Below, in pieces: positions 26,504-63,825 of a DNA stretch of 64,000 nt; the stretch's first letter is position 1, and each line of letters starts with the position of its first letter. The stretch spans positions 19,716,001-19,780,000 of the forward strand of contig OY740806.1 of NCBI GenBank assembly GCA_963514005.1, written 5' to 3'. Source of the stretch: Raja brachyura. Lineage: Eukaryota. Under the pieces are notes generated by a model. The model did not search any database and was not told where the DNA came from. It was given only the letters and a program-made list of their open reading frames with translations. The translations under genes and the position numbers were made by a program.

Positions 26504-26570
26504 ATGGGTGGATTACCAAGCATCATCCATGTTATCTTATTAACATTCATACTGGAAGCAAATTCTGAGA
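26504..26570 (+). CDS. Ig gene A, first coding exon: signal peptide MGGLPSIIHVILLTFILEANSE
   Basis: Acceptor tttcttttcag before 26492 and ATG at 26504 (gaaATGg). Hydrophobic leader, then a GTAAGT donor at 26571 in phase 1, typical of IgSF leader exons. Confidence 0.85.
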
Positions 26571-28977
26571 GTAAGTACTGGATTGATGCAACTGATGAAA
26601 CAAAGTGGGCAGATAAATATAGTTATGAGGCTGTGGGTACAAGATACCACAGATGCTGATTTACCAAGGAAAGGCACACAATGCTGGATTTACTCAGCAG
26701 GTCGGGCAATGGCCATGGAGAACATGGATAAGTGCCCTTCTGGGTTGAGACCCTTTTTCCGACTCATTGCCTATCCATGTTCTCCAGGGAAGCTGCCTGA
26801 TATGCTGAGTTATTCGAGCAGTTTGTGTCTTTCCTCAGTTATGAGGCTGGCTGCTTATATACTCAACATATCTTTGCTGTGTCAAAATTCTAGCTAAATC
26901 CTTATTTATAAAGAATTCATTAAATGAGGAAGCAACACAAACAATATCTAATGTTTCCCTAGCTGCACGGCAGCTTGGCTTGCCTATGGTCAGTTACCAT
27001 GGTTTGGAATTCCCCTCCTCATATCATCTACATTATCGCTTCAGTGCACGAGATGCTAGATTTCAGCTCCGAATCACTGAACCTGCACCATAACAACAGA
27101 TTAAATTTGCTCTTTGATGTTAGGAGCAAACTGCGTACTAAATTTTCCAGCTTTGGAGCAATTGCAGGATTTCAAATGAGTAGTGAAATTGTTTTAAGAT
27201 GCGTGGAAGGCCACAGTAGGGCAGCTGTAAACACAAAATCTTACCTGGATAATTTTAAATAAAATACCTGTTGCGATCCAAAGCTATTGTTGCAATGATG
27301 ACAAGAAGAGGAGTATTCCGATGAGATCGTTTCTCACAATTTCTATGCCCATAACATCATCTGCGTCAATGCAATTTAATATTTTCTTGTTGTGAATCTG
27401 TCCCTGTATATTTGGGTAGAATTATTTTTTTATATTATAATTATGATAAATAGTCCATTGGATAACAATGCAATTATAGTTGCAAATGGGTTATTTCAGT
27501 GCAAGATGTTAATGTAACGATATTTGATATTTTAGAAAATTAATATTTGTTATTGCTAAATGAAGGAGGTTATTGTGGTATAATTTAAAAAAATCTCTCA
27601 GGAGATATATCGGAAAACACAACACTTCTATTTTAGGTTTCAAAGGGAGGACTTTGCATTTGTTGGGTTCCTGGAATATGCTCAGTTTACAAACTATTTA
27701 AATGATGGGAACTTGGTTGCACTTACCAACATGCAATTACTTAATTTAATTTGCTATTTCTGGGAACAGAAGAACATATTGCAAAATAAATGTAAAAATA
27801 ATTGAGTAGACATTTGAAATGAAAGTCCAAGGAACAGAATTATTGGAGCAAAGTTCTTTGCAAATATGTTCCTGTTTGCACATTTTACATGTAAAAGAGA
27901 GGGCAGTTTTCTATCCCAATGTTGAAGTTAAATTATTTTAAACTTCATTGTTGTGTTTGGCATAAGTGAGAGAATGAATAACTTCCAGTTCTATTTTCTC
28001 ACTGTTCCATCCAAACTATTTTATACCATGTTCAATGCAGAGTGAAGTCCAACAAAGTGACGCAGGCTCAGCATTGGAAACCGTCAGAGATTTTTCCTGG
28101 AATAAATGTCAGCACAATTTGGCAATAACGTATTTGTAAGGAACTGTGCTCCAGTAATTCACTTCCATTGGCCCCCATTCAAAATTTTAAATGTGTTTAT
28201 ATTTCAGTATGTGGTTGACTTGAATCTAGTTCTAATCATTCTTTTAATTATAACTATTTCACAACAAAACCCAGCTCCTCTGTTGTCTGGCTGTTCTATC
28301 TCTCTCACCCTTTTTGCATGCTTCCTTGTGTCTTCTCTCACTTCTCACCTTCTATCATTCCCCCAAGCTCTCTTGTCATTCTCCTCCTCATCCCTCTCTC
28401 CCTCTCCCTCTATGCTTGCTCTCGCTGGCTAGCTTTCTCCCGGCCTACCCGGTGCTTTCATTTCTCAACCCTCTAGAAATTGCTGAGCATTTGATTAAAG
28501 TGATTGAAGTTCAGCGTGCGACCAGCCACAATTAACATACCTTAATCAATTCAATTACATGATTTGATGTCACAGGATTTGACCTCGTGTTGTTCTAAAT
28601 TGTATGATAAGTGTAAGCACACACTAAAACATTGCTGTACTGGAGATATAGTTTTGTCCAAGGTATAAAGCCATGATTGCTTTGCACAAGTATTGCTTGG
28701 ATTATTTCTCCTGTCTCATCTTAGTTGCACAAAGTGACCTTACAACCCAGTTTTTCTAAAGCATGTGAGAACTCAAATCCATCTTAGCTGAACACAGCTG
28801 CTCCATTTTCCTAATTGGTTGTACAAAACAGGAATTGGGTGCATACATTATGCAATCTGCCCAAAGCTCAATTTTTAACTTCCAGATTTGGGCTTATAAT
28901 AACTGACGGACATAAAATTCCAACTTTCATTCCTTATACATTAGTTGGTTAGATCAAGACATCAATGAAATATGTTT

Positions 28978-29102
28978 AAGAAGGAACTGCAGATGCTGGA
29001 AAATCGAAGGTAGACAAAAACCTGGAGAACCTCAGCGGCTGAGGCAACATCTATGGAGTGAAGGGAATAGGCAACGTTTCGGGTCGAAACCCTTCTTCAG
29101 AC
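28978..29102 (-). mobile_element. Penelope-derived short element with a hammerhead-like core. Other copies lie near 1357, 11865, 12258, 26265, 33797, 36447, 47388, 50588, 52440, 58551 and 63952
   Basis: Minus strand reads CTGAAGA-A-GGGT-TTCG-ACCC-GAAA-CGTT. The family co-occurs with Penelope ORF ends (LGSLQPNGMxIEF at about 5388-5445 and 61477-61525). Confidence 0.6.
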
Positions 29103-29165
29103 TAAGATGAAATATGGGTGTTTTCAAAATGCTGAATAATTTCTTTTTTTTTATTTTTTAAACAG

Positions 29166-29474
29166 GCATTAAGCATTTAAAAGTCACCCTGATATCCGGC
29201 AGACAGGGATCACTGAAGTGTCCCCATTCATTAAAGAACACAGATCAAAATTATATTTCGTACTGGAATAAAGAAGCTGAAACAATTTGCTATGTGAATT
29301 TCAACGGGAACGCTGATGTACAAGGGTGTACTGCATTGCAACTTCACGTAAAGGAAGGAGAAATTACCTTAACTATTACAGAAGTGAAACACTCAGATTT
29401 TGGGAACTACACTGGCTACTTGTACACAAAAGATGAACATTTTGAATGCAAAGTTAACTTGCTTGTAAGACATG
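29166..29474 (+). CDS. Ig gene A, V-type Ig domain exon (SIKHLKVTLISGRQGSLKCPH..YISYWNKE..ITLTITEVKHSDFGNYTGYLY..FECKVNLLVRH)
   Basis: Long poly-T tract plus AACAG acceptor and G|GTAGGT donor. The exon is 309 nt, open, phase 1-1. It has a B-strand Cys, C-strand Trp, LTI E-strand and DxGxY motif. Confidence 0.9.
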
Positions 29475-29744
29475 GTAGGTGTTTTAAAAATTGGTGTGGC
29501 TTTGAGGTACTTTCAAGTCAAATATTATGACAAAATCACTTCATAGCTTGGGATTTATTTATATGTGACAGTAAATCCATTGTATGTGTCATCTATGCAT
29601 TGGCTGGAGTATAGCTGGATTCCAGGACTGAAAAGTTTGTGCTGATGTTTCCTCAGAGTTGCAGACCAACTTGTTGCCGAGCCTCACTTGAGTAACATAG
29701 CATAAGCTAGAATGACTGTGATGTTTCTGCACTCTAAATACGTG

Positions 29745-30646
29745 ACCGGAAGTGGCGGCGCTGCCTGGCAGCTGCGGCTCGCCTGCAGTCCGTCTGTTTT
29801 TTCTTTTTGTTGTTGTTTTGCTTGTGTCTGTTTTAGTTTTGTTTAGTTTAGTTAGTTTATTAGATTGTGTAAGTGTGGGGGGGGGGGTGGGAGAAACATG
29901 GTTTAGTCTCTTCCTTCGGGGGGGATACGACCTTTTCTTGTTGTGTCCCCTGTCTCCGTCTGCGCTGAGGCCTAATGGTGGAGCTGACGGCCTCGGGCGG
30001 CGTTCGCGGCAGTGGCAGTTCTGGCAGCGACAGTGGCCCGACTGGCCCGACCTGGCAGCAGCAGCGGCCCGACTTGGAGCTGTGGCGGCACTCCGGCGAT
30101 CCGGTAGCGGCAGCGGCCCGACCTGCAGCTGTGGCCTGACTTTGGAGCTGTGGCGGTGTTCTGGCATTTCGGCGACGGTGGTGGCGTGGCTTCCGAGGCC
30201 CGGCCGCGGGCCCAGTGGACGACATCGTCGGGAGCTCGCAGGTCACAGGTTGGTGACCTGTTTTCTGGAGCTCCCGCAACAACAGCTGCGTCCGCTGGAC
30301 TGGAGGGCGGCAGCTTTGACCGCCCCGGGCCGCGGAGTTTGAATCGGACCGTTCGCGGAGCTGGATTCAGCCGCGGGACTGACTCACTTACCAACACCCA
30401 GCGGGGTCACAACATTGGAGGCCTGGATCGCCTCAGCGCAGAGGGTGAACAAGGAGGGAAGAGACAAAGACTAAGACTTTTGCCTTCCATCACAGTGAGG
30501 AGGTGTTTGGTGAGCTCACTTTGGTTGATGTTAAATTTGTGTTTATTGTGTGTTTTTGTTACTTTTAATATATGTATGACTGCAGGCACGAAATTTCGTT
30601 CAGACCGAAAGGTCTGAATGACAATAAAGGTAAATCTGAATCTGAA
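29745..30646 (+). mobile_element. CpG-rich non-autonomous retroelement ending in acaataaagg and (tctgaa)2, in intron of Ig gene A
   Basis: Same 3' module as 4432-5095. The short tandem tail is typical of LINE-mobilised elements. The overlapping ORFs are GC artefacts. Confidence 0.55.
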
Positions 30647-33600
30647 CATGGGAGCACAGAGGGTACCGTCTCTGCTTTGCAATATCGATCATGACCTATA
30701 ACGTGGAAGAGTACAGCACAAGAATAGGAGCCCGCAATGTCTGTGCGGAACATGATGCCACGGCCATCTCTTATCTACCTACACGTGATCTATATCCCAC
30801 CATTCACTGCATATCTACATGACTATCCAAAAGTCTATTAAATGCCACTAATGAACATCTGCCTCAACCGCCAATCCCCGCAGTGCACTCCAGGCACTCA
30901 CCACCCTCTGTGTAAAGACAAAGAACGTGCCCCACACATCTCCTTTAAACTTTGCCCCTCTTACCATAAAGATGCGTTCTCTAGTATTTGATTTTTCAAT
31001 CTTGGGGAAAAGATTTCTAGCTGTATTGTTATGCGCTATGTATAACTTCATAGCTATACCCTCTAGTGTTGGGCATTTCCACCTGGTGGGGTGGGGGGGG
31101 GGGGGAGGTTCTGACTGTCTTTCCGATCTTTGCCTCTCATAATTTTATATACTTCTGTTAGTTCTCCCCGCAACCTCCGGTGTTCCAGAGAAAACAATCC
31201 AAGTCTGTCCAGTCTTAGTCCCCTTTAGCTAATGCTGCGTAATCCAGGCATCATTCAGGTAAACCTTCAAAGCCCTCCACATCCTTCTTGTATTGGGGCA
31301 ACTAAAACTGCAGTCTATACTCCAAATGCGGCCTAACTAAAGTCATACAAAGCTTCATCACGACTTCCTGTCTGTTGTACTCAAGGGTATAACCTCTGGC
31401 ACGAACTCTGTGGCATTTCAATCTCTCACTGTATGGCCTTTCCCCAAGTGCTTCTGTTTTCTGGGCAGCTCAAAGATGTGCTGGAGAGTCAATTGGCCAC
31501 CATAAATTTCTGCTGGTGTCGGGGGAAGTAGTAGTAGCAGTGAGGAGGGAAAACGCATCTGAGAGAGAACAGACTGCAGGGAAACAAGTAGAGGAAATGG
31601 AACCAACAGGATTGCTAGCTGCTATTGACTTGATGGGCTGAAAGTCCTCTGTATTGTAAGGAAGTTTAGTTCAATTTCAGCTTACACATTCTTACACAAC
31701 TGTTTATAGATACAGCATGGCAACAGGCCCTTTAGCCCACCTAGTCTATGCTGACGATCGATCACTCGATCACGCTAGTTCATAAGTTCATCTGTTGTAG
31801 GAGCAGAATTAGGCCATTCGGCCCATCAAGCATACTCTGCCATTCAATCATGGATGATCTATCTTTCCCTCTCAATCCTATTTCCCTGCCTTCTCTCCAT
31901 AGCCCCTGACACCCGTACTAATCAAGAATCTGTCAATTTCCACCTTAAAAACCTCCATTGTTGGCCCCCACAGCCTTCTGTGGCAATAGATTCCATCGAT
32001 TCACCACACACTGACTAAAGAAATTCCTCCTCGTCTCCTTTCAAAAGTTATGTGAACTCTCCCACTAGTGGAAACATCCTCTCTACATCCACTCTATCCA
32101 CGCTTTTCACTATTTGGTAAGTTTCAATGAGGTTCCCATTCATTTAAACCCCAGCTTGTACAGGCACACTGCCATCAAACACTGATCACATGTTGACCCA
32201 ATCATTCCTGGGATCATTCTCGAAATCCACCTCTGGACGCTTTCCAGCACCAGCAGATCTTTCCACAGATATGGAGCCCATATATCTATGTTCTATGTTA
32301 TCCCACTAGTTCTATGCTATCCCACTTTCTCATCCACTCCCTACACACAAGGGGGAAACCCAACTGGACGACACCCACACGGTCACGGGGACAGTGTGTT
32401 AGCTCCACACTGACAGTACCCAAGCCAGGATTGAACCCAGGTCTCTGGTGCTATGAAGCGGCAGCTCGATCAGCTTCGCCCAGTTTAAAAATAAATCTGC
32501 AGCAGCCAAAGGAGTGAGTGATTACAGAGTTAAATATAATACATTGAACTTTGTTTACGGAAGGATGTTTCTCGTGAAACTCAAGTAGAAATCAGCTGAT
32601 ATTCATGTGAATCTGTGACTGTACAGTCACGGGGGGGGGGGGGGGGGAGGGGGAGGGGAGGTGATATTTATGGTTTACTTCCTTGATATTTGTGCCAGAC
32701 AGTCGTCTTAAGCAAATATGCAGAGCCCATCATCTGCTTTATATCTATAAATAAACATTTTTCTGAGGTAGCATTTCTATCTCAGCATAATTTAAATGGG
32801 CACCGGTCCAAAGTGGGCACTTTTCTTTGGTGTTCAGTGTATAATCCTCAAGTTATTTAAGACACCGACATCTCTGTGCAATTGTGTACTTTGTGTCTTG
32901 TGTTTAAGATTGATTTGCCAAAAGTGCAAACTTGCTGCCTGGATTAGAGCGTGCGAGAGAGGGTGGACAGACTTGAATTGATTTCCCTGGAGTGTTGGAG
33001 GTTGAGGGGGCACCTGATAGAAGTGTATACATTCATGAAAAGCCTTGCTCGGGTAGACAGCCAGAACATTTTTTTCAGTGGAAATTTCAAAGCCTGGAGA
33101 GCATAGTGTTGTGAGTGGGGCAAGAAATAAAAGGGAAGTGTGGGTCAAGTGTTTTTACACAGAGAGTGGTGAGTGTCGCTAATGCAGTGCCATGGCTGGT
33201 GCTGGAGGCAAATATAATTGTGGCGTTTAAGAGGCTGTTAGCTAGGGATACAGATATGCGGGGCATGAATCACATGGACGTAGAGGGGATTCATTTAACT
33301 TGGCATGGATACATAAAAACATTGAAACATAGAAAACAGGTGCTGGAGTAGGCCATTCGGCCCTTCGAGCTATCACTGCCATTCAATATGATCAAAGCTG
33401 ATCATCCAAAATCAGTACCCTGTTCATGCCTTTTCCCCTTATCTCTTGACTCCTTGAGTCCTAAGGGCTAAATCTAACTCTCTCTTGCAAAATGGACATT
33501 GTGGGCCAAAGGACAAGGTCCTGTGCTGGACTGTTCTATTTTTTTTTAAATTCTCATTTTACACTCTGCACTAGATCAGATGAAATGTACGGCGAAGCCT

Positions 33601-39259: not shown

Positions 39260-39304
39260 ATAGCAGAATGTTACCTGGTTCTCATGGCATTTGTACAACA
39301 GCAG
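39260..39304 (+). CDS. Ig gene A, stalk/GPI omega-site exon (DSRMLPGSHGICTTA)
   Basis: ccattttattacag acceptor and CAG|GTATGA donor. 45 nt, phase 1-1, open. Confidence 0.75.
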
Positions 39305-41497: not shown

Positions 41498-41559
41498 GTC
41501 CGTTCTTGCTGCTACTGCCAATTGCTGTGGTCATTTGGAATTTTCCATTCCTCTTGTAG
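41498..41559 (+). CDS. Ig gene A, terminal exon: hydrophobic GPI-signal tail GPFLLLLPIAVVIWNFPFLL*
   Basis: cttctattcttttcag acceptor, phase 1. A 19-residue mostly hydrophobic run ends at TAG with no cytoplasmic tail. Confidence 0.75.
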
Positions 41560-43429
41560 AAAGGCAAATGTTGCGACAGACCGAGTTCTGAAAATCTGAT
41601 GTTCTTGAAAGATCATTTGCCATTCAAGTAATGTGCAATATAAAGAGGATATTTGCAAAACATGATCCAGCAACATTTCAATTAAAGTCATCTGAGGGAC
41701 AATCCTGAAAAGTTGCAATACTACGTACCACTTTCAGCCTGTGTGCGTGACATTTTGGGCTGTACATTGAACTGTTACATTCCTTTGCCTATTGTGATAT
41801 GAGGGCATTTCAGCAGGATGTGAATTATGATTTGTAATGCTTCTGAAGTTAAGCATCCATGACATCTTAAGGTTACAAGCCATATTCTGCAAACAGTGTT
41901 TTGACATTTTATTATGTGCCAACGAGATTGATTTATTTTTACATCAAATCATTTAATTGTCTTTTAAAATATTTTGATTTTGTGAGGCTTCAGAGGACAA
42001 TATATAAATGCAGGACTGGATATAAAAATACAAATTACAAAAACAATGGTTAGTGCCAATAGTTAGTGGTATTTGTCATTAAAAAGTCCTTCCAAGTCTC
42101 TCCAGACTGAATGCGCTATTTGGTTCAGTGAATGCCACTACAGCAAGATTTAGTTTATGGTAAACTACTTCCCGTACTTCCCCTTGAGGCAAACTTTATC
42201 TTTTGACATTTTGCTTTAAAGGATGAAACTGTAATTAGTAAAATTAATTTCATTATTTTTAACAAAGCAGGTAAAACTTAAAACTAAGATTGTTGAACTC
42301 ACACAAGTCAGAGGTGTATTGCAAGTTTGGAGAAGGGTAAGTAGGGACTTCTCTCTGCTTCAATAATGTGCTGTGATTACGGCCCTCACGTTTATCCAAT
42401 CACAACAAGGAAATTTGAGGTCCTGTATACAGATCTGTTTAACATTTATTCAAACAGTACAGAACCAAAAGAATTCAGGTCATTTCTAATTTAGAATTGA
42501 CATTATTTCCTGTCCATCATTCTATATATATGAATGAAAATATTTTTGTGAACTAAACTCGGTAATTTTTGCTCTTTGATTCAGTGTATCTATGCTAACT
42601 GTGAGAGCAAATAACTATGGTACTCTGGGAATGGGGCTGGACGAGCAAATTATGGTGATGAAACTAATCTTCTGTAAAGGTTGCTAGTTTGCTTACATCC
42701 AACAGTTGTACTGATCAAGCGAACCAAAATAATTCAGGTCATTTCTAATTTGGATCACTATCAAATCATGTGATAAAATTGAAGTGCAGATCTGACTAGT
42801 TATTTAAAATTAGAAGTTCATACAAATGAATCTGCGGTTCAACATCATATTAATAATCAACATTTTCCAAGCCCACCATTGAATCAGAGTGCCTAGTCCA
42901 ATGATCGCATTCCCAGTTGCAGCAAATGGTCGTTCTAAGCTGGGGACGGTCTATTTATACACTACACCAACAGGAAATAAGTATGAAGAAATAGTCATCT
43001 CATCTTGCTGGAGATGTGATGAATAATTTGTAATAGTTCTGACGATTTAATCTCAGATTTTAATTGTAACAGTAACAACAACATTTGTGACATCATGTTT
43101 CGTATATGTCTGTGTCTTGTGAATTGTGCACTTGTGACAGGAGAATTTAAGAATAGTTCTAATGTTGTGCTGCATGTAAAGTTCCCAGTGACAGATGCTT
43201 GGGAATATGTACATTTTTGATTTTTGGGATCTAATCACTCCTGTTGCATTCTCAACATGTAATCAATATATCTTCAGAAGCTGAACAGACTCTTGCATTA
43301 ATATTTAAAATCTGTGAAATTACATTTTTTTGTGATAAAGTTGCAGGTCAAAGTAAATTCAAAAACAGAATATATTTTGTCTGGTCCTCTGTACATCAAT
43401 CACTGTAGTGTGATCCACTACCAATAGCC

Positions 43430-44470
43430 TTGAAGACAAATACCCTGAGGACCTATTCATCACGGTTTGGGCTAGACCAGGCCGACCTCAAGAGTGTGCG
43501 ACCAAGATACTATCAGCATGTATCCTGCCCTACCAGAGGATCGAATGCCCTTGAACACAGCGACACAGCTATCAAAGACATCTATCACTCCGTCTAACTT
43601 ACACACTCTGCTCCTCCTTCCTGCATACAAGAAGAAACTGAATCAATAGGATTTGGTATAGAAAGTCGAACGGTATTTGTCTGAATAAACATGAGCTCCT
43701 ACATTACTGTTTGAGTCGGTAGACTGGTCCATGTTCAAGCGCCCGCCCCAAGTGGATACACTGGTTGTGTCGCAGGGTTCATCAATAAGTGTCTAAAGGA
43801 CTGCATGTCAAAGATGTCAATATGAGTGTTCCCCAACTGGAAACAATGGATGAACTGTGACATCCATTGCTAAGTAAGGATCAAGTCTGAGACGTTCAAG
43901 TCGGGTGATCCCGATGTGTACAATAAATCTGGATAGCACCATCATAAAGACATCAGGAATGCCAAGAGACAATTCCGGACAAACCACAAAGAGCCTGTTG
44001 ATTCTGGAAAACCTTGCATTCTATAATGGACTACATGCTGAGTCTGCCAGAATCACTAGCAATGACATTCCCCATCCAGACGAGCTCATGCATTCTATGC
44101 TCGTCTCGAACACCAGATCAATGGAATTATGTCACCCACCCCCTTGGGTGCTTATGTACCACACCCAGCTGATTGGCAGCTGGGCAGAAGATACAAATGT
44201 TTAAAAGCATGTATCACCAGATTCAGACAAAGCTTCTTCCCCAATTTTATCAGACCTCTAAGGATGAAATCCCACTCCCCCAATCTAGTTGTTGCAGCTC
44301 ATGTACTTTCTTTAATCTGCAATTTCTCTGTCGTTGTAACACAATATACACCACTCTGTTTATGTTCTCTTTTGCATTACCTGATGCATTCATGTATGGT
44401 GCGATTTGCCTAGATAGCACCAAATCAAAGATCATTACTGTACCTTGGTACACATGACATTAATAAACCA
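43430..44470 (+). mobile_element. Highly degenerate Rex1/Babar-like LINE fragments
   Basis: Recognisable residues (tgtttgagtcggtagactggtccatgttcaag; ttccccaactggaaacaatggatgaac; agcttcttcccc) and a gacattaataaacc tail. Confidence 0.5.
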
Positions 44471-45117
44471 ACATCAATGGAAATATCAATAGTACGACCG
44501 AGCCTTTTTTATTTCAGCAGAAGTTGCTGTTAACTTTGCCCTGACCAAATTATGAATGTTGCTTTTTTGCTTAAGTATTGTATTGTGTTAAGTATTGTGA
44601 TGGTTTACAAACAGATGTGCATATTTCTTTTGCCTGGCAATCAGATTGACAATCTGAATCAAAATCCACATCTGGTGAATACAAATTGTTTAAATTTCTT
44701 TCCAGATGTGGATTTTTTTTTCTCTTTCATTCGAGCCTGCAGTGCAGGGCCAAGGGCCTCTCCTACACCTATGTTCTATTAACACAAAGAGACAGACTGG
44801 TACCAAAACAAGCTTTGGTTTTGTACCAGATATAATTTTTATTCTTTCCTAATGTCTGTTCTTCAAATTTAAAATTATAAATTGGAAAATTGATATTTTA
44901 TTCTCCAGTTTATCAAAAAAGTATAATATGTATTTAAATAAATACGTAGTTTACTTATTACTGTTAAAATATGTATACAATTTGCATGTTTTGAACATCT
45001 TTGTTGATATAAACTTTTGTGCATAGAAACCTAAAAACATTTGCGAGCTAATATAAATTGTGTCAGATGATGCAGTGGTATGATTGAATGTAAATGTGTG
45101 CTATGGTTCTTAAAGTA

Positions 45118-46725
45118 CAGTGGCTTGCAAAAGTATTCATACCCCTTGAACTTTTCCACATTTTGTCACGTTACAACCACAAACGTAAATGTATTTTATT
45201 GGGATTTTATGTGATAGACCAACACAAAGTGGTGCATAATTGTGAAGTGGAAGGAAAATGATACATGGTTTTCACATTTTTTTACAAATAAAAAACTGAA
45301 AAGTGTGGCGTGCAAAAGTATTCAGCCCCCTTTACTCTGATACCCCTAAATAAAATAGAGTGCAACCAATTGCCTTCAGAAGTCACCTAATTAGTAAATA
45401 GAGTCCACTTGTGTGTAATCTAACCTCAGTATAAATACAGCTGTTCTGTGAAGATCTCAGAGGTTTGTTAGAGAACATTAGTGACCAAACAGCATCATGA
45501 GGCCCAAGAAACACGCCAGACAGGTGAGGGATAAAGTTGTGGAGAAGTTTAAAGCAGGGTTAGGTTATAAAAAAATATCCCAAGCTTTGAACATCTCACG
45601 GAGCACTGTTCAATCCATCATCCGAAAATGGAAAGAGTATGGCACAACTGCAAACCTACCAAGACATGGCCGTCCACCTAAACTGACAGGCCGGGCAAGG
45701 AGAGCATTGATCAGAGAAGCAGCCAAGATGCCCATGGTAACTCTGGAGGAGCTGCAGAGATCCACAGCTCGGGTGGGAGAATCTGTCCACAGGACAACTA
45801 TTAGTCATGTACTCAACAAATCGGGCCTTTATAATAGAGTGGCAAGAAGAAAGCCATTGTTGAAACAAAGCCATAAGAAGTCCCGTTTGCAGTTTGCCAC
45901 AAGCCATTTGGGGGACACAGCAAACATGTGGAGGAAGGTGCTCTGGTCTGATGAGACCAAAATTGAAGTTTTTGGCCTAAATGCAAGACGCTATGTGTGG
46001 TGGAAAACTAACACTGCACATCACCCTGAACACACCATCCCCACTGTAAAACATGGTGGTGGCAGCATCATGCTGTGGGGATGATTTTCTTCAGCAGGGA
46101 CAGGGAAGCTGGTCAGAGTTGATGGGAAGATGGATGGAGCCAAATACAGGGCAATCTTGGAAGATAACCTGTTAGAGTCTGCAAAAGACTTGAAACTGGG
46201 GCGGAGGTTCACCTTAGGACAACGACCCTAAACATACAGCCAGAACTACAATGGAATGGTTTAGATCAAAGCATTTTCATGTGTTAGAATGGCCCAGTCA
46301 AAGTCCAGACCTAAATCCAATTGAGAATCTCTGGCAAGGCTTGCAAATTGCTGTTCACAGATGCTCTCCATCCAATCTGACTGAGCTTGAGCTATTTTGC
46401 AAAGAAGAATGGGCAAAAATGTCAGTCTCTAGATGTGTAAAGCAGGTAGAGACATACCCCAAAAGACATGCAGCTGTAATTGCAGCGAAAGGTGGTTCTA
46501 CAAAGTATTGACTGGGGGGCTGAATACTTTTGCACACCACACTTTTCAGATTTTTATTTGTAATAAAGTTTGGAAATCATGTATAATTTTCCTTCCACTT
46601 CACAATTATGCACCACTTTGTGTTGGTCTATCATATAATCCCAATAAAATATATTTACGTTTGTGGTTGTAACGTGACAAAATGTGGAAAAGTTCAAGGG
46701 GTATGAATACTTTTGCAAGCCACTG
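45118..46725 (+). mobile_element. Full-length Tc1 (DD34E, IR/DR-type) DNA transposon, 1608 bp
   Basis: TA|CAGTGGCTTGCAAAAGTATTCATACCCCTTG...CAAGGGGTATGAATACTTTTGCAAGCCACTG|TA, with TIRs of about 210 bp containing internal direct repeats. Confidence 0.97.
45497..46511 (+). pseudogene. Tc1 transposase, inactivated by a nonsense codon at 46082-46084 and a small deletion near 46215
   Basis: Paired-like HTH, GRPPKL, WSDETK, KHGGGSIMLWG*, (Q)DNDPKH and [15 protein letters not shown]. Confidence 0.93.
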
Positions 46726-48841
46726 TATTTTAGCTCCCAGCCTTTCCCAGCCTGGAGTTAATTGTTTTTCTTTTTGACCATACATAACACTGCTGTCATC
46801 TTCAACTTTGAAAAACCTGCTGAAGTAAATATGAAGTTGTAGAATTTCTGCTTATATAGACTTAGTGCAGTTTTCCTATGAAGCCTTTTAAATTTGCACA
46901 TAAGATCACAAAAGTAAAATATAACTGATACTGAAAAGATGACTTAATAGTAAAAAATTTGCCGGAGTTTGGACAATGCCTATGGAGAGAGGACCTGAGT
47001 CGACATTTCATCTTTTTTTTTTACCTGTAAATGTTTTTGACCTAAGAATGGACTGTGTGATTTACATTCTATGCACGGTATTTTGCTTTTAATTAATGGA
47101 TAATTTGTACACTTGGGGACAATTTGGTATTTAAAATGCTTGCAAAGTAGGCCAGGAGTAAACTTTCCATTAAAAGATCAGTGCTAACTGGGTCTCGCCA
47201 CCATGTTGGAATCCATGGCTAACCAGAGAACTTATATAGATACTGAACGTAGCCCACAAGTTTAGTACATTTCTTGCTATTCCTACAGTTTCACATCTGC
47301 TAAATTTCTACTTTCAATCTAAAATTGGAACACGTTATGTGATAACATCTTACCTTCTTTGGTCTGAATTGAGTAGCTCTTTAATTTCTCTGAAGAAGGG
47401 TTCTAACCCTAAACGTCACCTATTCCTTTTCTCCAATGATGCTGCCAGACCCAGCATTTTGTTACTCCAGCATTTTGTCTCTATCTTCGGTACAAACTAA
47501 CATCTACAGTTCCTTCGACATGGTTTATCTTCTAATCCTTGCCAATTTCAATTAAGAATCGTGAATGATAAAGGAATTAATAATAATAATTAACTTTTGA
47601 ATTAGATGGTGATTAATGTCACATGCAAAAGATATTTAGGCTATTAATTCAATTATGTGTAATGTTGATGCATTAAATGCAGTCCTATGTACTCTTTGTA
47701 AAACAACAGTTTACAGTTGGTATTTCAATACCAGGAAATGAGATGGAATTATTAGTGTGCTGTTTTGGGTATTATGCGTAGTACTTAGGCCAAATATGGT
47801 GCCCCAAAGAAATGCAATTGGTAATGCCTTTTAAGAACTTGTAATTTATGATTTGCACTCATTCATGTTGATAAACTCAATCTGAATCCTTTGGAGTTTA
47901 GAACTGGCACCCCATCCATTCTCCACAATCCCTCCAATTCCCTCTCATCTCTGTTGTAGTGACAGTCATCACTAAAGAGATCTCTCCACAAGGACTGTGA
48001 CTGCCATGGAGGTGATAGAGAAATGTTTGAGGTTATGGAAAATGAGATTGGCAGAATCTTGAATATGGAAGGTTCATTGATTTCCCAACTATGGAGTGGG
48101 GAAATTGGTGTCTATCTTCATAGTGGCCCCGACTACCTGAGCTCAATGGCAGTACTAAGTCCAGAGATTATAGCTCTATCATTGTTACCAGTTCATAGAC
48201 CTCTCAATCTCTTATAGATGACCTGTAAGTCACATTATTCCATGGACAGTTGACTTTTGCATCATGATATATTCCTCATTTTGTTGTGTATTCTTTACAA
48301 AGATTGTAAGTTATGACCAGAAATGATTTCACGAGTGAGATACATGATCGATGCATGACAGAATATGCTAGTAAATCATGACAGAACGTGCTAGTGGAAT
48401 GATCCTCAAGAGGAAATGAGAGCAATCTAAAAGAGGCTCAAAATGTTTCAAGTGCATCTTGTTTATTGAAAAGAAAGGCAAAAAAGGTTGAATTCCCAGG
48501 AACATGTGTTGGATAGTCAGTGGAAAGTGAATTTAGTGGGGTGGGGTGGAGGGTGTGAGGGGGGGGTCAGTGTTCAGTGGTGACGCATGTCACTAAAGCA
48601 GCCATATCTGAGCCATTGAACTGATTGGCGTGCTGGATGTTTTCAGAAAGCAATTAACCATATAACCATATAACAATTACAGCACAGAAACAGGCCTTCT
48701 CGGCCCTTCCAGTCCGTGCCAACCATTTATTTTCCCCTAATTAATATTGAATCATATTGCTATGGGTTGGGAGCTCTATTGGCCAGACGGGATTTCCTCC
48801 TCTAAAAGACATTAATTAAAGTTATTTTATTTTCTTATACA

Positions 48842-49120
48842 GCAGTGGCGTAACGGTGCCAACTCTACAGCGTTACAGCGCCAGAGTCCCACGTTTGATC
48901 TTGACGGCGGGTGTTGTCTGTGCGGAGTTTGTAGGTTCTCCCTGTGACCGTGTGAGTTTTCTCCAGGTGCTCATGTTTCCTCCTAGTGCCAAAGACATGT
49001 AGGTTTGTAGCTTAATTGGCTTCAGTAAAATTGTAAATTGTCCCTAGTATGTAAAATAGTGTTAGGGTATGGGGTGGACTCAGTGGGCTGAAGAGCCTAT
49101 TTTCACATTGGATATCTAAA
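48842..49120 (+). mobile_element. V-SINE (HE1-like), degenerate
   Basis: V-core GGAGTTTGTAGGTTCTCCCTGTGACCGTGTGAGTTTTCTCC. Confidence 0.75.
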
Positions 49121-49280
49121 GTCGGACAATTTGCTTAAGGCTATTGGAAAGCAAAAAGAAAAATGGCAAGACGGCTGCCAATTTGAAACGAAGGTCATCC
49201 ATATAATCTGAGAACTAAAAGGTTTGCACAGCTGCAAGGGAAAATTTTTCATATCACAGCATGGAGCGATTACCAGCAAT

Positions 49281-50448
49281 TTGGACCCTTGAAGACCGAA
49301 AAAGGTGAATTTATTATAGGGAACAAGGAAATGGCAGATGAGTTGAACAGGTACTTTGGATCTGTCTTCACTAAGGAGGACACAAACAATCTTCCTGATA
49401 TAGTAGTGGCCAGAGGATCTGGGGTGACAGAGGAACTGAAGGAAATCCGCATTAGGCAGGAAATGGTGTTGGATAGACTGATGGGACTGAAGGCTGGTAA
49501 ATCCCCAGGGCCTGATGGTCTGCATCCCAGGGTACATAAGGAAGTGGCTCTAGAAATTGTGGATGCATTGGTGATAATTTTCCAATGTACCATATACTCA
49601 GGATTAGTTCCTGTGGATTGGAGGGTAGCTAATGTTATCCCACTTTTTTAAAAAGGTGGAAGAGAGAAAACAGGCAATTATAGACCAGTTAGCCTGACAT
49701 CGGTGGTGGGGAAGATGCTGGTGTCAATTATAAAAGATGAGATAGCCGCTCATTTGGATAGCAGTAACAGGATCGGTCTGAGTCAGCATGGGTTTACGAA
49801 GGGGACAACATGCTTGACTAATCTTCTGGAATTTTTTGAAGATGTAACTAGGAAAATGGACAAGGGAGAGCCAGTGCATTTAGTATACCTGGACTTTCAG
49901 AAAGCATTTGATAAGGTCCCACATAGGAGATTAGTGGGCAAAATTAGGGCACATGGTATTGGGGGTAGAGTGCTGGCATGGATAAAGAAGTGGTTGGCAG
50001 ATTGGAAACAAAGAGTAGGGATTAACGGGTCCCTTTCAGAATGGCAGGCAGTGACTAGTGGGGTACCGCAAGGCTCAGTGTTGGGACTGCAGCTATTTAC
50101 AATATACATCAATGATTTGGATGAAGGGATTCAAAGTAACATTAGCAAATTTGCAGATGACACAAAGCTGGGTGGCAGTGTGAACTATGAGGAGGATGCT
50201 ATGAGAATGCAGGGTGACTTGGACAGGTTGGGGGAGTGAGCAGATGCATGGTAGATGAAGTTTAATCCAGATAAATGTGATGTTATCCAATTTGATAGCA
50301 AAAACAGGAAGGCAGATTACTATCTACATGGGGTCAAGTTGGGAAAAGGGGAAGTACAACGGGATCTGGGGGCCCTTGTACATCAGTCTGTGAAAGTAAG
50401 CATGCAGGTGCAGCAGGCAGTGAACAAAGCGAATGGCATGTTGGCCTT
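49281..50448 (+). mobile_element. CR1 LINE ORF2 RT fragment, followed by an inverted CR1 tail (about 50455-50535)
   Basis: [39 protein letters not shown] and KFADDTKL, with stops. Confidence 0.93.
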
Positions 50449-51099
50449 TAGAATCATAGAAAATCATAGAATCATAGAAAATCGGTGCAGGAGGAGGCCA
50501 TTCGGCCCTTCGAGCCTGCACCACCATTCAATATGCAAGTAGTCTTGGGTTCACTCCATTACCATAAAGTCATGAAAGGGTGATGTGGCTGAAGAAGGGT
50601 GTCGACCTGAAATGTCACCTATCCATGTTCTCCAGAGATGCTGCCTCACCTGTTGCGTTACTCCAGCTCTTTGTGTCCTTTAGTGTATTAACCTGCATCT
50701 GCAGTTCCTTGTTTCTACACCTTATTCCAAGTTAGCATTCAAGGCAGTATCATAGTAAATTAGATTCCACAATTAAAGAAATGCTTAATTTAACATTGCA
50801 TGCATGATGTGGAATGTATCATGCTGAAACAAACCATTTAAGCCAACAGCGGCAATGTCACGGTCCCCACAAATCATCTCCGTCGCTAACACTTTCTCAC
50901 TCCACAGATGTTTCCTCAACAACTGGCGGTTCTGCCATTTTCTCTTGTTATTTTAGAGTTCCAGTGCCGTTTTTTTAAATTATCAGGATGTTGGTAAATA
51001 TTGGCTATTTTATTAGGGAATTAAAAGGAAACAATGACATTTTGACATTTTGTATTTTGTGAGAGTTTGTTTCATATTTTCATAATTATTTAATTCCTT

Positions 51100-51510
51100 A
51101 TTGACAGACTCCGTGCAGATGATTAACAGCACCTCCTCCTCACTGACCTTCAACATAAGGGCACAAGGCTGTGTGCTTGGCCCTCTGCTCTACTCTCTTT
51201 TCTCCCATGATTGTGTGGCCAAGCACAGCTCCAATGCTATCTACAAATTTGCTGTTGACCCTCACTGCTGTTGGCTAAATCCCAAGTAGCTGACAAGTCA
51301 GAATGCAGGAGATAGAACATGTCGTTGAGTGGTGCTGCAACGACAACCTATTGCTCAACGTCAACCAAAAGAATAAACTAATCCTTGACTTCAGAAAAGG
51401 GAAGTTGAGAGCCTGTTTTCATTGCCAGTTCAGCAACAGAGAGTTAACAGCCTCACATTCCTGGATATTAAAGTCTTGGATGATCTGTCATAGGCCTAGC
51501 ACATGGATAC
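51100..51510 (+). mobile_element. Rex1/Babar-like LINE RT fragment
   Basis: QGCVLGPLLYSLFSHDC..IYKFA and EWCCNDNLLLNV. Confidence 0.7.
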
Positions 51511-52999
51511 ATTCAGTAAATGATGCACATGGATTTCTTCCATGAATGATCCTTGCCATTCAGTCAGGGAACTCCAGCAGGAAGATTGTGGTTTTGTAGT
51601 CTTCACTGAGCCGGAGGATACAATAGAAAATGAATTGCAGGAAGCCGTAGCCCGAGAAAATACTTTTAACTTCATATATTTCCCAAGAGGGGATAACCAA
51701 GGTTCTTATTTGACACTTGGAACATCTCTTTCACATTTGGTTCTATTCAGGGTTGTCAGTTCTAACAGACTTCAATTCATGGAAGTGTTTTGTGGATTTT
51801 TATGTTACTCAGTCACACTCTGATCATTGACTCATTCTTGTCCTCAGACAATTTTCCCAAATCAGAATCATGGCTTGTGAAATCATTGCTTTCTTCATCA
51901 ATACCTTTTGTAAGACATTTATGATATTGAGGGAAAATGTAGTTCTGTTTAGTACCATTGTGGATTTTCTGATGAGCTATTCACTGAATTTCATGAAGGC
52001 TTTTCTTTAAATCAAAGATGACGAGAAAGGTTGACAGTCCAAACAGCATCTGATATTGCTGGATAACTACTTTACCTGACTGTGGCAGTAATTAAAAATA
52101 CTGAACGAGCGCACACTAAGTGACATCTTGTGAACATGTCTAAACTTCCAATTCTCTAACAAATGAAGAGATGTGCTTTATTTATACCAAATTATTATAA
52201 CATGCAGAGCAACATTTCTGACAGTGCGTTCTCTGGAGAGGTAAACTCTCCTGTGAGCTGTACACTAAAACAATGCTTCAGCAGAGTTACTCATATGCGT
52301 TAATTTCAAAAGAGGTACACACTCAAAATTCCATGTTACAGGTAATGTTCCATTGATGTAGATGCTGGTAAGTTAAACTCAAATCTAATATTGTTTTCAG
52401 TGAGTTTAATGGTTTCTAAAACAATGCACATTTATGATAAGGTAGACAAAAATGCTGGATAAACTCAGCGGGTGAGGCAGCATCTATGGAGTGTGGGAAA
52501 TAGGCAACATTTCAGGTCGAGACCCTTTGGAAGGGTCTCGACCAGAAACGTTGCCTATTTCTTTTGAATGCAAAGGAAGCTTGTTAGCCTTTGTAAACAC
52601 TTCCAGCCAATGCAAGATATACCTTATGGAACTATCTTAGTGAGAAGGAGTAGGGGGTCGGAGAGATCAGGAAAATGGTCAAACAATTATACCAAATGTC
52701 AATTTCAGATATCAACGTCTAAATGTCTGAACGTCTGTTGCAAGTACTTTTTAGCCAATCTGTGGAAATAATTTCAAACACATGTCACCTCATTTAGATC
52801 CATCACCTATTGGGACTTTATTGGCTCTTGATATAAAGTTTAAAAATAAAAAATAAAGCTATCCACGAAGAATAAGCCATCTCTTTATTACCTTTCAGCT
52901 GAGAGCACAAGCTCATGAGAAAATTTTTTATTTGTAGGGGACCAAAAGATTGAGGAATGGAAAAGTTACATTTACCAAAGAAAAGAAAATCCACTTGTT

Positions 53000-53225
53000 T
53001 AAAAAAAAAATACACTAAGTGCTGGAGCTCCCGAACAGTTCGGGCATCATCACTGGAGATCGTGGACAGGCAACATTTTGGGTGAGGACAATTCTCAGAT
53101 TGCCGAGAAGGAGTTGGGGTGCTAGAGATCAAAGACCGTTTGATGTAACCAACAAAAGGGCAGGCATTGGTGGAGCCCATGCGAGTGCCCATGGCGACAA
53201 ATTTAACTTGAAGAAAGTGCAAGGA
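53000..53225 (-). mobile_element. Penelope RT fragment plus Penelope-derived repeat in the 3'UTR region of Ig gene B
   Basis: FLQVKFVAMGTRMGSTNACPFVGY resembles the PLE RT motif QxxGxAMGTRMGPxYAxLF. Confidence 0.6.
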
Positions 53226-53475
53226 GTCAAAAAAGAAGTAATTGAGAGTGAAAAGATTCCACCAGATGGAGAGGAATGTTAGTGGAGGGAAACTGAATTG
53301 GGCTGTGTTCCGGGAAAATGTGGAGGGCCATGAGACCTGGGGATGGAAGTGTGCAGATAAATCCTCTTGTTCCTCAAGAAATACAGACTCTTTTCAGGAA
53401 TACTTCAGGAAATTCGGTTTCTACAAGAGAGCTTAGCAGAAAAGTCTAATTGCCCTCTGTAAAACTATCATGTGC

Positions 53476-53575
53476 TCAGAATTCAGAAGTAATTATGTTG
53501 TCTTTTTGGCTATTGACATTTTCTGGAGAGTCACTTTTGGCCAATCTGCTTTGGTTCCTGTGCTGCTTTGAGTTC
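53476..53575 (-). CDS. Ig gene B, terminal exon (RNSKQHRNQSRLAKSDSPENVNSQKDNIITSEF*)
   Basis: Strong acceptor ctatttttctttctcattag. Phase-2 entry is open to TGA at 53478-53476. AATAAA signals lie downstream (52932-52927 and 52822-52817). Confidence 0.7.
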
Positions 53576-58443: not shown

Positions 58444-58550
58444 ATGGAGCTGACCATCGTAGGAATACTTTATTCCATAGGTATCGTAGCTTGAATTATT
58501 CTGTCATTCCAAATTCTTTCACTTAAATAAATAAATAAATACGTGGGGAA

Positions 58551-58741: not shown

Positions 58742-58807
58742 AAGTGGTGAATGTTAATAGCTATTAAAACTTCTGCTTCACATTTGTTTGTTTACCAGTT
58801 AATTTAC

Positions 58808-58885
58808 CTTTCCTGCAGCAGAGCAGTAACAAAATCAGAGTCGTCATGAAGATTGGCACCGTTACAAATCGGACAGGGAAATGAC
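58808..58885 (-). CDS. Ig gene B, transmembrane exon (SHFPVRFVTVPIFMTTLILLLLCCRK)
   Basis: tttgttgtcttacag acceptor and AAG|GTAAAT donor. 78 nt, phase 1-1. Hydrophobic helix followed by CC and a basic stop-transfer. Confidence 0.85.
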
Positions 58886-60863: not shown

Positions 60864-61184
60864 TTTTCCAATCTGATGTCACGTATACTCTCACAGAAGA
60901 TTCTTTGGTGCCATATGAATTGTAAGCTCTGCAGATATACTTTCCATTGAAGGAATCATCGATCTTCTCTTTCTGCAGAATTGAATGACTTAATCCAATA
61001 GACAATTGTATCCTTTCAGTTTGGTCTCCTGATTTCATCCAGATGACCGTGGATATTGGATTACTGTCCGTGGTACAATTTAGTTGAAGATATGACTGAG
61101 GTTCAACATAGATGAATTCTTGGAGCAGAGGCTGCAATTGATGCGCAATAGAATTCCTGTAATGTATTGCTGGCTGTGGACCAT
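60864..61184 (-). CDS. Ig gene B, I/C2-set Ig domain exon (YGPQPAI..LQLNCTTDSNPISTVIWMK..DSFNGKYICRAYNSYGTKESSVRVYVTSDWK)
   Basis: 321 nt, phase 1-1, A|GTAAGT donor. Pyrimidine tract with a GAG acceptor gives a YGP junction. Contains C..SNP....W and GxYxCxAxNxxG motifs. Confidence 0.88.
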
Positions 61185-62319
61185 CTCAATCAGAACAGTG
61201 GAAAAAAAAGGCATAAGTCACAAGGGCAGCTTCAACAAAGCTTTGAAAGTACCACCTGTCACCCCTTTGTATTTGCGCCTCATTTTTAACCTGTTATTTA
61301 AAATAGATTTTGTATATTTGAAATAACATTTCGCTTAACAATGCTGAATGTTTTATAAAATTGTGGAGGTTATTTGTCCAATTACTCCAGTGTTGACATA
61401 AAGGAGGAGTCCAGATTTTGCCCATACATTCCTCCATCACAAGAGTGAGGCCACGTACTAAGTGAAAGAATCTAATGTTCTGCTTGGGTAGTTTACACCC
61501 CAATGGCATGACATTGAATTCTTCAATTCACAGTTATACTTTTCCTACATTCCTTTGGCCTAATGGGTGGCTTCAGAACCAACAAGGGCCATGAGAAGTG
61601 AATGCAAATCAGACTGGCCATTAATCCAAGAGTTGCCATGACAGTTCAAGATTTGATGGTTTGTTTGGATCAGTGGTGGTGAGGAAGGCTGCAAGCTTAA
61701 TAGTTGACTGATAAGAAGTGCAATTATATACAGTACTGTGCGCATTTGTGACATTTGAACATCCCTGTTAGATTTTAGCAATGTGCAGGTTAATTTTTGG
61801 CCAATAATGTTTCTCAATTTTCCTTCTCAAAACCCTTCATCAATCATGAGAAGTACTCATTAAGAGGCAGATTAGGCTTTGTCCAATGGAGTGTACTGGA
61901 CATGATTATCTCAATTTGGTCTCCACTACATGCTGTGGTCGTTTTGATGAGCACCTGCACTCAGTGGTCTAGTAGTGATCCCCAGCTTCCTAGTATTTCC
62001 CACTTTAATTCCCAATTCTACGTCTATTCTGACCTGTGCATCAGTGGCCTGCTCCACTCCCAGTAGTGACGCCTGACATAAACTAGAACAACATCTTATC
62101 ATCTGTTGAGGTACTTTTGCAATTTTCTGGAATGAATATTACGTTTTCCAACTTCACATACTGCTCTCCTATTGTGTTCTTATGTTCCTTTCTCAAACAG
62201 CTTATTTGAACAGTCATGCTCCTTAATATCTGATCTTTCTTAAATTATCTCCATTGTCTTGCCCCTCATTCCTCCCTCCAGCTCTGCTTTGAAAACTGCC
62301 AACCCTGCACTCCAGTAGA

Positions 62320-62630
62320 GTTACTGCAGCAGTAGAGTTGCTGCCTTACAATGGCAAAGATCCAGGTTCGATCCTGACGTAGGGTGCTCTACACTGAATT
62401 TGTACGTCCTGCCCATGACCTGCGTGGGTTTTCTCCGAGATCTTCAGTTTCCTCCCACACTCCAAAGATGTACAGATTTGTGGGTAGGCTTGGTATAAAT
62501 GTAAATTGTATAAATGTAAACTGTCCCTAATGTGTGTAGAATAGCGTTAATGTGTGGGGATAGTTGGTAGGCACAGACTCGGTGGGTCGAAGGGCCTGTT
62601 TCCATGCTGTATTTCTAAACAAAACTAAAC
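62320..62630 (+). mobile_element. V-SINE (HE1-like)
   Basis: B-box GGTTCGATCC, V-core and aaactaaac tail. Confidence 0.8.
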
Positions 62631-63498
62631 TCTCTCCAGCCTCTCCATTTCTAAGAAAGGGTCAATGAATCAAATTATTGTTTCTCTTTCATCTGGACTG
62701 GGTGAGTTCTTCCAACATTTTGGTTCATGTTTCAACATCTGTAGATTTATGTATTAACTTCCTTAACTTTCTTCATTCAACTTAGTAAAATTCCATCTTC
62801 TTCAATCTTTCTGCAAGAACTGCTTTCCTAAATCACTCTAATTATTCAAACAAATGTTTTTTCTCTCCTCTAGACTTGCTAAAATGGATAGCTAGAAATG
62901 TCTACCATGTTCCAGCTAACTCAACAATTGAGATTGAGAAAAGCATTGTTGAAATTTGTTACCAGTTAGAAGTATTTTCTATGTGGTCCGTGGACTATAA
63001 ATCTTCACAGGAATCAATAGGAGAGACAACATGCCTCATTGGGTGATGTTCTATCCCATTGTCACCAGCCATGCTGGTTCGGTACATTTACAACATTGCG
63101 TAGCTATCAGCATGGATTACTCACCAGGCAGGTCAAAAAGTCAATTAATTACAAACTGTTAACTCTCAATCCTCAGCAATGTCCATGAATAGCAATGTTG
63201 GCATTGTTATCCTGTGGAACTTGCTCACTTGTAGCCTACACCCTAGTGCTTAGTTTGGATTTTGAGAGAACCACTTCACTTCACACCACATCCTGGCCAA
63301 ATTGTCTAAGACTACGAGATCCAGAAGACCTTCACCACAGTCAATTAAGCTGCATTTCAGACTGAAAAATCAAGGTGAGAAGCATTTCTGACATTACCTG
63401 GTTATTTAAAAGGCTAGGTGAAATACTTAGAACTTAGCCCATGTCCATGGTACGTAATTGGAAATTGTAATGAAAGAGCACAAAATGAACATACTTAC

Positions 63499-63825
63499 AA
63501 TTAACGTTGAGTGTTATGTGTTGCATTATCCACTCTTTGCTTGTTGCATGAAGGACCTGACAAGTAAAAACTGTCCTGTGGTCTTGCAAAGTGGGAGTAA
63601 AACTAATTTGACTTGTTGCGTCAAATGTGCCATCAGAGTTCCTGGTTGGGGAGAGTTTTGTGGTAATATTAACATCTGATTTTGTAGCTTGAGTGTCGTG
63701 AGGATGTTGCCATTGCATTGTGATGTTCTCAGGATAAAATCCCCATGCATGGCAGTCCAAAACAGATGCTTTCTCTGCTATTAAATCTCCCTGAGTCATT
63801 AGAATTTTTGGTGTAGATTCTGGGA
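63499..63825 (-). CDS. Ig gene B, C1-set Ig domain exon (PESTPKI..LDCHAWGFYPENITMQW..RNSDGTFDATSQISFTPTLQDHRTVFTCQVLH..ITLNVN)
   Basis: tgttatttgttacag acceptor and T|GTAAGT donor. 327 nt, phase 1-1. Carries the C1 signatures CxAxGFYP..W, NxDGTF and FxCxVxH. Upstream exons lie beyond the window. Confidence 0.92.

Follow-up and report, generated by a model that had tools for sequence, protein, structure and literature searches.

Convergent IgSF genes and the DNA between them

The window analysed here, a stretch of 64,000 nucleotides of Raja brachyura DNA, holds two intact IgSF genes that converge tail to tail, gene A on the forward and gene B on the reverse strand (Table 1). The original prediction had described a GPI-type single-V gene facing a C1-containing transmembrane (TM) receptor about 12 kb away, and this layout was borne out: the coordinates are exact, with 26504 as the gene A ATG and 63825 as the first base of the gene B C1 exon, both reading frames are intact, gene A closes as a four-exon model with a predicted GPI signal, and gene B has a C1-set domain (Pfam, E 8.4e-13) and a TM exon. 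All nine exons of the two genes are supported by orthologues. Beyond that earlier picture, the C1 domain of gene B is followed by another Ig domain, of I type, and the N-terminal part of gene B lies past base 64000.

By their coordinates the two stop codons are 11,916 bp apart. No host gene was found in this gap, either by a Pfam scan of 72 ORFs of at least 48 aa or by an exon scan, and when these ORFs were taken together with 103 upstream and 10 others, the matches above the cut-off were to transposon families only; the upstream and intergenic scans likewise found no synteny marker within the window. Since the Pfam scans excluded ORFs shorter than 48 aa or lying mostly in window repeats, and the exon scan, a stricter one, recovered only two of the known exons, genes with small exons may remain in the gap. 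Among the listed pieces from DNA contigs of four sequencing runs (region 39100-59000), none was found to span the gap; the contigs of a close relative reach the 3' ends of both genes. Given the tail-to-tail order, A and B have no shared promoter.

Table 1. Coding exons of genes A and B and the features of the gap between them, in window positions.
Feature	Position	Strand	Observations
Gene A coding exon 1, signal peptide	26504..26570	+	19/22 identical to P0002
Gene A exon 2, V-type Ig	29166..29474	+	68/98 identical to P0002
Gene A exon 3, 15-residue stalk	39260..39304	+	14/15 identical to P0002
Gene A exon 4, hydrophobic C-terminus without charge, of GPI-signal type, with stop	41498..41559	+	19/20 identical to P0002
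Intergenic gap	41560..53475		11,916 bp; Tc1 transposase, CR1-type reverse transcriptase, other repeats
Tc1 transposase	45485-46508		in A-B gap; Pfam ORF scan
CR1-type reverse transcriptase	49652-50236		in A-B gap; Pfam ORF scan
Gene B last exon, cytoplasmic tail and stop	53476..53575	-	ends TSEF, same four residues in P0001
Gene B 25-nt micro-exon, Cys-rich juxtamembrane segment	56403..56427	-	matches stingray segment
Gene B transmembrane exon	58808..58885	-	16/26 vs stingray
Gene B membrane-proximal Ig (I-set/Ig_3)	60864..61184	-	64/107 identical to P0001
Gene B C1-type Ig exon	63499..63825	-	74/109 identical to P0001; exons upstream lie beyond window

Gene A, a predicted GPI-anchored single-V protein

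Gene A (26504-41559) has four coding exons in an open frame, separated by introns that are all GT-AG, and its product of 160 aa opens with a signal peptide, continues with a single Ig domain of V type and a stalk of 15 residues, and ends in a GPI-type tail. Because the ATG exon has a splice acceptor at 26493, a non-coding exon should lie further upstream. The V domain falls below the Pfam cut-off (V-set, E 4.5e-4) and is modelled by AF2 with a pLDDT of 82 (V-fold Z 13.4); it has one N-glycan site and cysteines in the B, C', C'' and G strands, with a Gly at the F-strand Cys position and no Cys in the A strand (protein Cys positions 41, 64, 77, 117 and 137), and would likely be held by B-G and C'-C'' disulfides. 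Within the gene A family the partner in the canonical disulfide is likely swapped between members, B-G as against B-F.

The stalk offers candidate GPI attachment sites and one more Cys. Small residues stand 20-28 positions from the C-terminal end, and the last 20 residues are hydrophobic (hydropathy 2.35) and carry no charge (0/20). By a rule applied to the sequence rather than by a predictor, the combination of signal peptide, small omega site, spacer, uncharged hydrophobic end and absence of a cytoplasmic tail suggests a GPI protein, and P0002 and P0007 share this GPI-type build. Such a product would be cleaved at a small stalk residue and then receive its anchor; tail-less, it would signal only via partners or lipid rafts, like Thy-1 and CD48.

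The homologues include P0002, P0006 and P0007. P0002 is an unnamed orthologue (120/155 identical, 77%) that matches every exon, and two further relatives stand at 33-34% identity. A word-index search with the V domain gave no match although P0002 exists, so the index is insensitive for this domain.

In language-model features the top three neighbours of gene A are Thy-1 clusters (0.94-0.95), and its product resembles Thy-1 (CD90) in having a signal peptide, a single V and a GPI-type tail within about 160 aa, two likely internal disulfides and a non-coding first exon. The disulfides of Thy-1 are the canonical B-F bond and one from the A strand to the anchor, whereas gene A has neither the F-strand nor the A-strand Cys and carries G-strand and C'/C'' cysteines; as a further difference, its stalk occupies a separate exon. 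Thy-1 has been described as having "two internal disulphide bonds" (PMC6305390), and RLD and REKRK, which are mammalian Thy-1 motifs (PMC6689999), are both absent from gene A. These differences speak against taking A and B as THY1 and NECTIN1 themselves, true orthologues that have diverged, a reading that would draw on the SP-V-GPI build of gene A and on Atlas neighbours that are Thy-1 and nectin clusters. No Thy-1 chain was among the fold-search matches of gene A, a result that is uninformative either way.

Fold comparison of the gene A V domain gives a tie between the V domains of B7 and of CD2/SLAM proteins (Z 13.0-13.4). Like the GPI-type ligands CD48 and CD58 it is without the canonical B-F disulfide, and its compact V superposes on theirs at an rmsd of 1.8 (CD48 Z 13.0, CD58 Z 12.3), scores that are tied with those of B7 domains; identity, however, is 15-21%. 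The CD2/SLAM ectodomain comprises V and C2, while the four-exon model of gene A, and likewise P0002, has one Ig domain and no C2, so that membership was rejected. The CD28 family (including CD28H, CD28HL and CD28X) was rejected as well: its members combine IgV, TM and a cytoplasmic tail with a Tyr motif, and have PPP/EIP in CDR3 (PMC11599192), whereas gene A has neither TM plus tail nor PPP/EIP. CD28H, an idea raised by the C'/C'' Cys pair, was rejected on this architecture, and five short motifs of the gene A family were not found in nine supplement texts.

Gene B, a C1-bearing transmembrane receptor

Gene B runs from 63825 to 53476 and its 5' end lies outside the window; the five exons seen, again with GT-AG introns throughout and an open frame, encode 282 aa in the order C1-type Ig, I-type Ig, transmembrane helix and 43-residue tail. 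The C1 domain also matches C2-set_2 (7.8e-5), and the membrane-proximal Ig matches Ig_3 (7.8e-8) and I-set (1e-7). At its outer edge the TM helix has an Arg that is conserved in stingray. The tail, 19/40 identical to that of stingray overall, has no tyrosine in Raja brachyura and one in stingray. Its conserved end forms a putative class I PDZ-type motif (S-x-hydrophobic), which would recruit a PDZ scaffold and anchor the receptor inside the cell; the juxtamembrane cysteines may be palmitoylated.

The orthologue P0001, from the red stingray Hemitrygon akajei, has the same exon series (173/282 identical, 61%); its model is without a V domain and begins with a LINE-derived artefact. P0023, from the catshark Scyliorhinus canicula, is 31% identical and has C1, I and TM in common with gene B, to which it adds a V domain and a tail with three tyrosines. 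The names of the two, "syg-2-like" and "CADM3-like" respectively, are automatic. As in P0023, gene B likely has an N-terminal V, through which it would bind another Ig protein in trans. Word-index searches with gene B gave 1/37 and 2/218 candidates.

Sequence places the C1 domain nearer to B7-H6 and antibody C domains, with the nectins further off: its best non-antibody human match is B7-H6 (E 2.7e-8), SIRP-gamma also matches (E 1.4e-6), and no nectin occurs among the 60 best sequence matches of either gene B domain. The modelled C1 fold ties with Necl-4 (Z 11.8), PVR (11.5) and nectins 1/3/4 (11.2), among others, and also with SIRP and MHC-II; among feature neighbours a nectin-4-like cluster comes first (0.95, 195/256 shared), and the Atlas structure search favours Siglec/MAG/CD22. 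Both genes are only weakly placed by family. In the fold scores many Ig domains tie with one another, and the resemblance to the Atlas neighbours may come from a common build and not from descent.

Gene B is built like the nectin/CRTAM adhesion receptors and corresponds fully to no family. With CRTAM, nectins and Necl (CADM) proteins it shares a C1-type domain with another Ig after it, a single TM and a short tail with a C-terminal PDZ-type motif, together with fold ties to Necl-4, PVR and nectin D2, although the C1-like fold ties with many C-type domains. Nectins and CADMs end in afadin-binding or EYFI-type sequences; the tyrosine-free gene B tail does not, and the gene B C1, unlike theirs, carries antibody-like C1 motifs. 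CRTAM is defined by V-C1 and a class I PDZ motif (PMC3858274); gene B has a putative motif of this class, but adds an I-type Ig after C1 where CRTAM has only the two domains.

A true C1-set domain is common to gene B, B7-H6 (NCR3LG1) and SIRP, from both of which gene B differs in its lack of tail tyrosines. SIRP was rejected as its family, the SIRP ectodomain being V-C1-C1 whereas the proximal domain of gene B is I-set/Ig_3 with no C1-set match. B7-H6, in which the V-C ectodomain directly precedes the TM (PMC3972465), was rejected on account of the extra I-set domain after C1 in gene B.

The charged TM residue allows a different reading, in our view unlikely, in which gene B belongs to an elasmobranch family of V-C1-I paired receptors as an activating member, coupled to an ITAM adaptor via the TM-edge Arg, the tyrosine-tailed P0023 types are the signalling or inhibitory forms, and A is unrelated. 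Eight consecutive residues that include the Arg are unchanged in stingray, against 16/26 for the whole exon, the Raja brachyura tail is short and tyrosine-free, and B7-H6 as best non-antibody human match and the C1-I module common to P0023 point the same way, as does the precedent of NCRs, which couple to ITAM adaptors through charged TM residues (PMC3972465). Yet the Arg may do no more than mark the edge of the membrane, the stingray tail carries a tyrosine, and the comparison is between two orthologues only. A PDZ-type end, conserved here, is moreover unusual among adaptor-coupled receptors.

Neighbours or partners

Adjacency and compatible size, with one Ig domain in A and probably three in B, support reading the two genes as a linked ligand-receptor pair, which we nevertheless regard as quite unlikely. 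On this reading the GPI single V would reach the membrane-distal domain of the three-Ig receptor and bind it in trans. The 1+3 geometry would resemble that of CD47-SIRP or TIGIT-PVR, and the four domains together would span the distance that is usual at immune contacts. Physical linkage is close, only transposon families having been found between these immediate neighbours, and the Ig domains of both diverge fast (60-69% to orthologues). A looser linkage precedent is the binding pair CRTAM/Necl-2, both on chicken chromosome 24 (PMC3858274). However, there are hundreds of IgSF genes (PMC13262535), and they are clustered, so adjacency is common, and the Raja brachyura gene B tail has no tyrosine for signalling. 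The V domain of gene A shows no similarity to the gene B fragment (E 3.2), which is without gene B's own V, nor to the V of P0023, the nearest full-length relative of gene B (E 7; hhalign probability 8.7%). The precedents named in the original prediction, CD2/CD58, CD48/CD244 and CD200/CD200R, are by contrast pairs of mutually related proteins, whereas A and B differ in build. A complex prediction for the gene B C1 with the gene A V, run without alignments or controls and on a domain that is not the likely binding one, scored 0.01 against a mark of 0.34.

A narrower version strikes us as very unlikely: an elasmobranch-specific linked 1+3 pair, the shark and ray counterpart of CD47-SIRP, in which the gene A V with its unusual B-G disulfide would bind a V-C1-I receptor of an undescribed family with adaptor-coupled (TM Arg) and tyrosine-tailed members.

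Human THY1 adjoins NECTIN1 on the same strand, and the products of these linked genes are not known to bind. The Thy-1 neighbours of A and the nectin-4-like neighbour of B weakly suggest that the locus is a block paralogous to theirs. Orthology proper we hold to be highly improbable, with A and B convergent and the nectins missing from the 60 best sequence matches of either gene B domain.

The reading we favour, at a probability of roughly 55%, is that A and B are two separate, intact IgSF surface-protein genes, neighbours likely without mutual binding, A being a single-V protein, predicted to be GPI-anchored, that would serve as an adhesion molecule or ligand, and B likely a nectin/CRTAM-style adhesion receptor with a PDZ-type tail. 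Its basis is the observed exon structures, open frames, domain types, orthologues, layout and conserved gene B C-terminal motif. Their adjacency would likely stem from an old IgSF-rich block, comparable to human THY1 beside NECTIN1.

No published description of either gene was found in the literature searched, a scope that left out most subscription papers. The locus adds two uncharacterised elasmobranch IgSF families, one of receptors with a C1 domain and one of predicted GPI single-V proteins, among which the canonical disulfide partner is swapped. Non-rearranging C1-domain receptors in cartilaginous fish are relevant to the origin of antigen-receptor and MHC constant domains, which makes gene B worth placing in a tree. 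If A and B do bind and stay linked across chondrichthyans, they would represent an immune checkpoint-like pair of ancient origin with no known mammalian equivalent.

Layout of the two genes

Two host genes, which we call A and B, lie in the window, which is otherwise vertebrate DNA rich in repeats. The original prediction, that a GPI-anchored single-V gene (+) and a C1-containing transmembrane receptor gene (-) converge about 12 kb apart, was confirmed: both frames are open, the stops lie 11,916 bp apart, and the anchor of A is predicted by rule. Pfam scans found above cut-off only a Tc1 transposase and reverse transcriptase among 72 ORFs of the intervening gap, and only a LINE among 103 ORFs upstream, though small exons could escape both. 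The last two exons of A, several intergenic pieces and the stop of B are also represented, with about 1–2% differences, in contigs of another, closely related organism (3 runs, 2 samples, 1 study); none of the pieces listed spans the gap.

Coordinates of genes and repeats (window positions)
Feature	Positions	Strand	Remarks
Gene A coding exons	26504-26570, 29166-29474, 39260-39304, 41498-41559	+	introns all GT-AG; spliced frame open, 160 aa; second exon V domain, third stalk
Gene B exons	63825-63499, 61184-60864, 58885-58808, 56427-56403, 53575-53476	-	frame open, 282 aa in window; third exon transmembrane
Tandem array	8200-11100		polypyrimidine/polypurine, ~2.9 kb, 20-bp period, ~78 copies in main block
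LINE ORF2	14526-18385	-	endonuclease + reverse transcriptase; 826-aa open frame, 422-aa frame downstream
Fragment related to this LINE ORF2	near 54900-55730		
LTR-retrotransposon remnants	36700-38900	-	second intron of A; reverse transcriptase + RNase H matches
LTR-retrotransposon remnants	56400-58300		similar-looking pieces in introns of B
Tc1/Sleeping-Beauty-type transposase	45485-46508	+	in pieces, between A and B

Gene A and its relatives

Gene A encodes a signal peptide, a V domain, a 15-residue stalk and a 20-residue end; because this end is uncharged and hydrophobic, with no cytoplasmic tail, it fits the rule for a GPI anchor. A HMMER search of 1.84 billion representatives gave 21 matches at E <=0.001, including the orthologue P0002 (E 1.4e-32), which matches all four exons (19/22, 68/98, 14/15 and 19/20 identities). 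The more distant P0006 and P0007 (33–34% identical to A) likewise have a signal peptide and a single V.

In the V domain, a cysteine is missing at the canonical F-strand position but present in the G strand. P0002 and P0006 likewise have B- and G-strand cysteines and none in F, P0007 shows the opposite (F present, G absent), and a C'/C'' pair is kept in all four proteins. Since titin Ig domains provide a structural example of a B-G disulfide (available text of PMC5766482), the disulfide partner has likely been swapped within this family. The F-Gly/G-Cys pattern also occurs in several domains of P0003, an unnamed six-domain protein. A fifth cysteine, in the stalk and kept in P0002, could serve for GPI attachment or homodimer formation, or be lost with the pro-peptide.

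The AF2 model is a compact V (pLDDT 82) whose fold matches tie (B7-H6 and CD80, Z 13.4; 2B4, CD48 and B7-H3, Z 13.0; 12–21% identity), and Foldseek was no more specific. CD48 and CD58 have two Ig domains each, whereas A has one. The nearest Atlas feature clusters of A are Thy-1 (0.95, 187/256 shared), a nearness for which common build may be the sole cause. The cysteine layout of Thy-1, a protein with two internal disulfides (excerpts of PMC6305390), and the RLD and REKRK motifs (excerpts of PMC6689999) are absent from A, and we regard diverged THY1 and NECTIN1 orthologues as a highly improbable identity for A and B. Membership of the CD28 family was rejected on its definition in the accessible portions of PMC11599192 and supplements.

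Gene B as a probable adhesion-type receptor

The first in-window domain of B is C1-set (E 8.4e-13; C2-set_2, 7.8e-5) and the second I-set/Ig_3 by Pfam. In sequence, the C1 comes closest to the constant domains of antibodies, to shark UrIg2 (a sum over three domains) and to B7-H6 (E 2.7e-8). Its fold scores tie among Necl-4, PVR, nectin D2, SIRP-gamma, MHC-II and others (Z 11.1–12.1); the Atlas matches of B are a nectin-4-like cluster by features and Siglec/MAG/CD22 by structure. A UrIg-like assignment was rejected, the build being different in the part of PMC12227049 consulted.

The stingray orthologue P0001 (Hemitrygon akajei, automatically named 'syg-2-like') is identical at 173/282 positions, which makes a ray or skate the likely source of the window. 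Its model has no V, and since residues 1–58 are CR1-LINE-derived (matching window 49889-50026), its N-terminus is likely an annotation artefact, with the real signal peptide and V exon missing. The sole further relative found, catshark P0023 (31%), has a signal peptide, V, C1, I and transmembrane order with tail tyrosines; by analogy, a V domain of B probably lies past base 64000.

The 43-residue tail of B is free of tyrosine and has clustered cysteines next to the membrane; its end, a class I PDZ-type motif, is identical in P0001 and of the kind seen in CRTAM, which is defined by V-C1 and a C-terminal class I PDZ motif (PMC3858274, in part). The P0001 tail has a tyrosine motif that B lacks in its last exon, where contigs of 2/4 runs show a two-base difference (Pro to Leu). 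In the transmembrane exon (16/26 identical overall), an Arg at the outer helix edge lies within an eight-residue run identical in stingray, possibly an adaptor-pairing or dimer motif. The charged-transmembrane principle (passages of PMC3972465) would then favour B as an adaptor-coupled activating receptor, which we nevertheless consider unlikely.

We found no paper describing A or B, although subscription papers and supplements on shark IgSF genes, outside our search, may cover them. Neither gene fits a named family; both builds are familiar.

Pair or neighbours

The pairs CD2/CD58, CD48/CD244 and CD200/CD200R consist of related proteins that arose by local duplication. That A and B form such a linked receptor-ligand pair, as the original prediction proposed, would agree with their direct adjacency, with the fast change of both sets of Ig domains and with one plus probably three domains, which suits the immune-contact distance. 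However, unlike these precedents, the V of A shows no likeness to the B fragment (E 3.2) or P0023 (E 7; hhalign 8.7%), the convergent order provides no shared promoter, and THY1-NECTIN1 is a precedent for linkage of genes whose products are not known to bind. IgSF genes are also numerous (PMC13262535, in part) and lie in clusters, and a true pair seems very unlikely.

We favour, at roughly 55%, A and B being neighbours in an IgSF-rich block, A a tail-less GPI-anchored ligand or adhesion molecule and B a nectin/CRTAM-style adhesion receptor. A would act via partners or rafts, B would bind in trans through its distal V and dock on a PDZ scaffold by its tail, and each would likely have other binding partners rather than the other.
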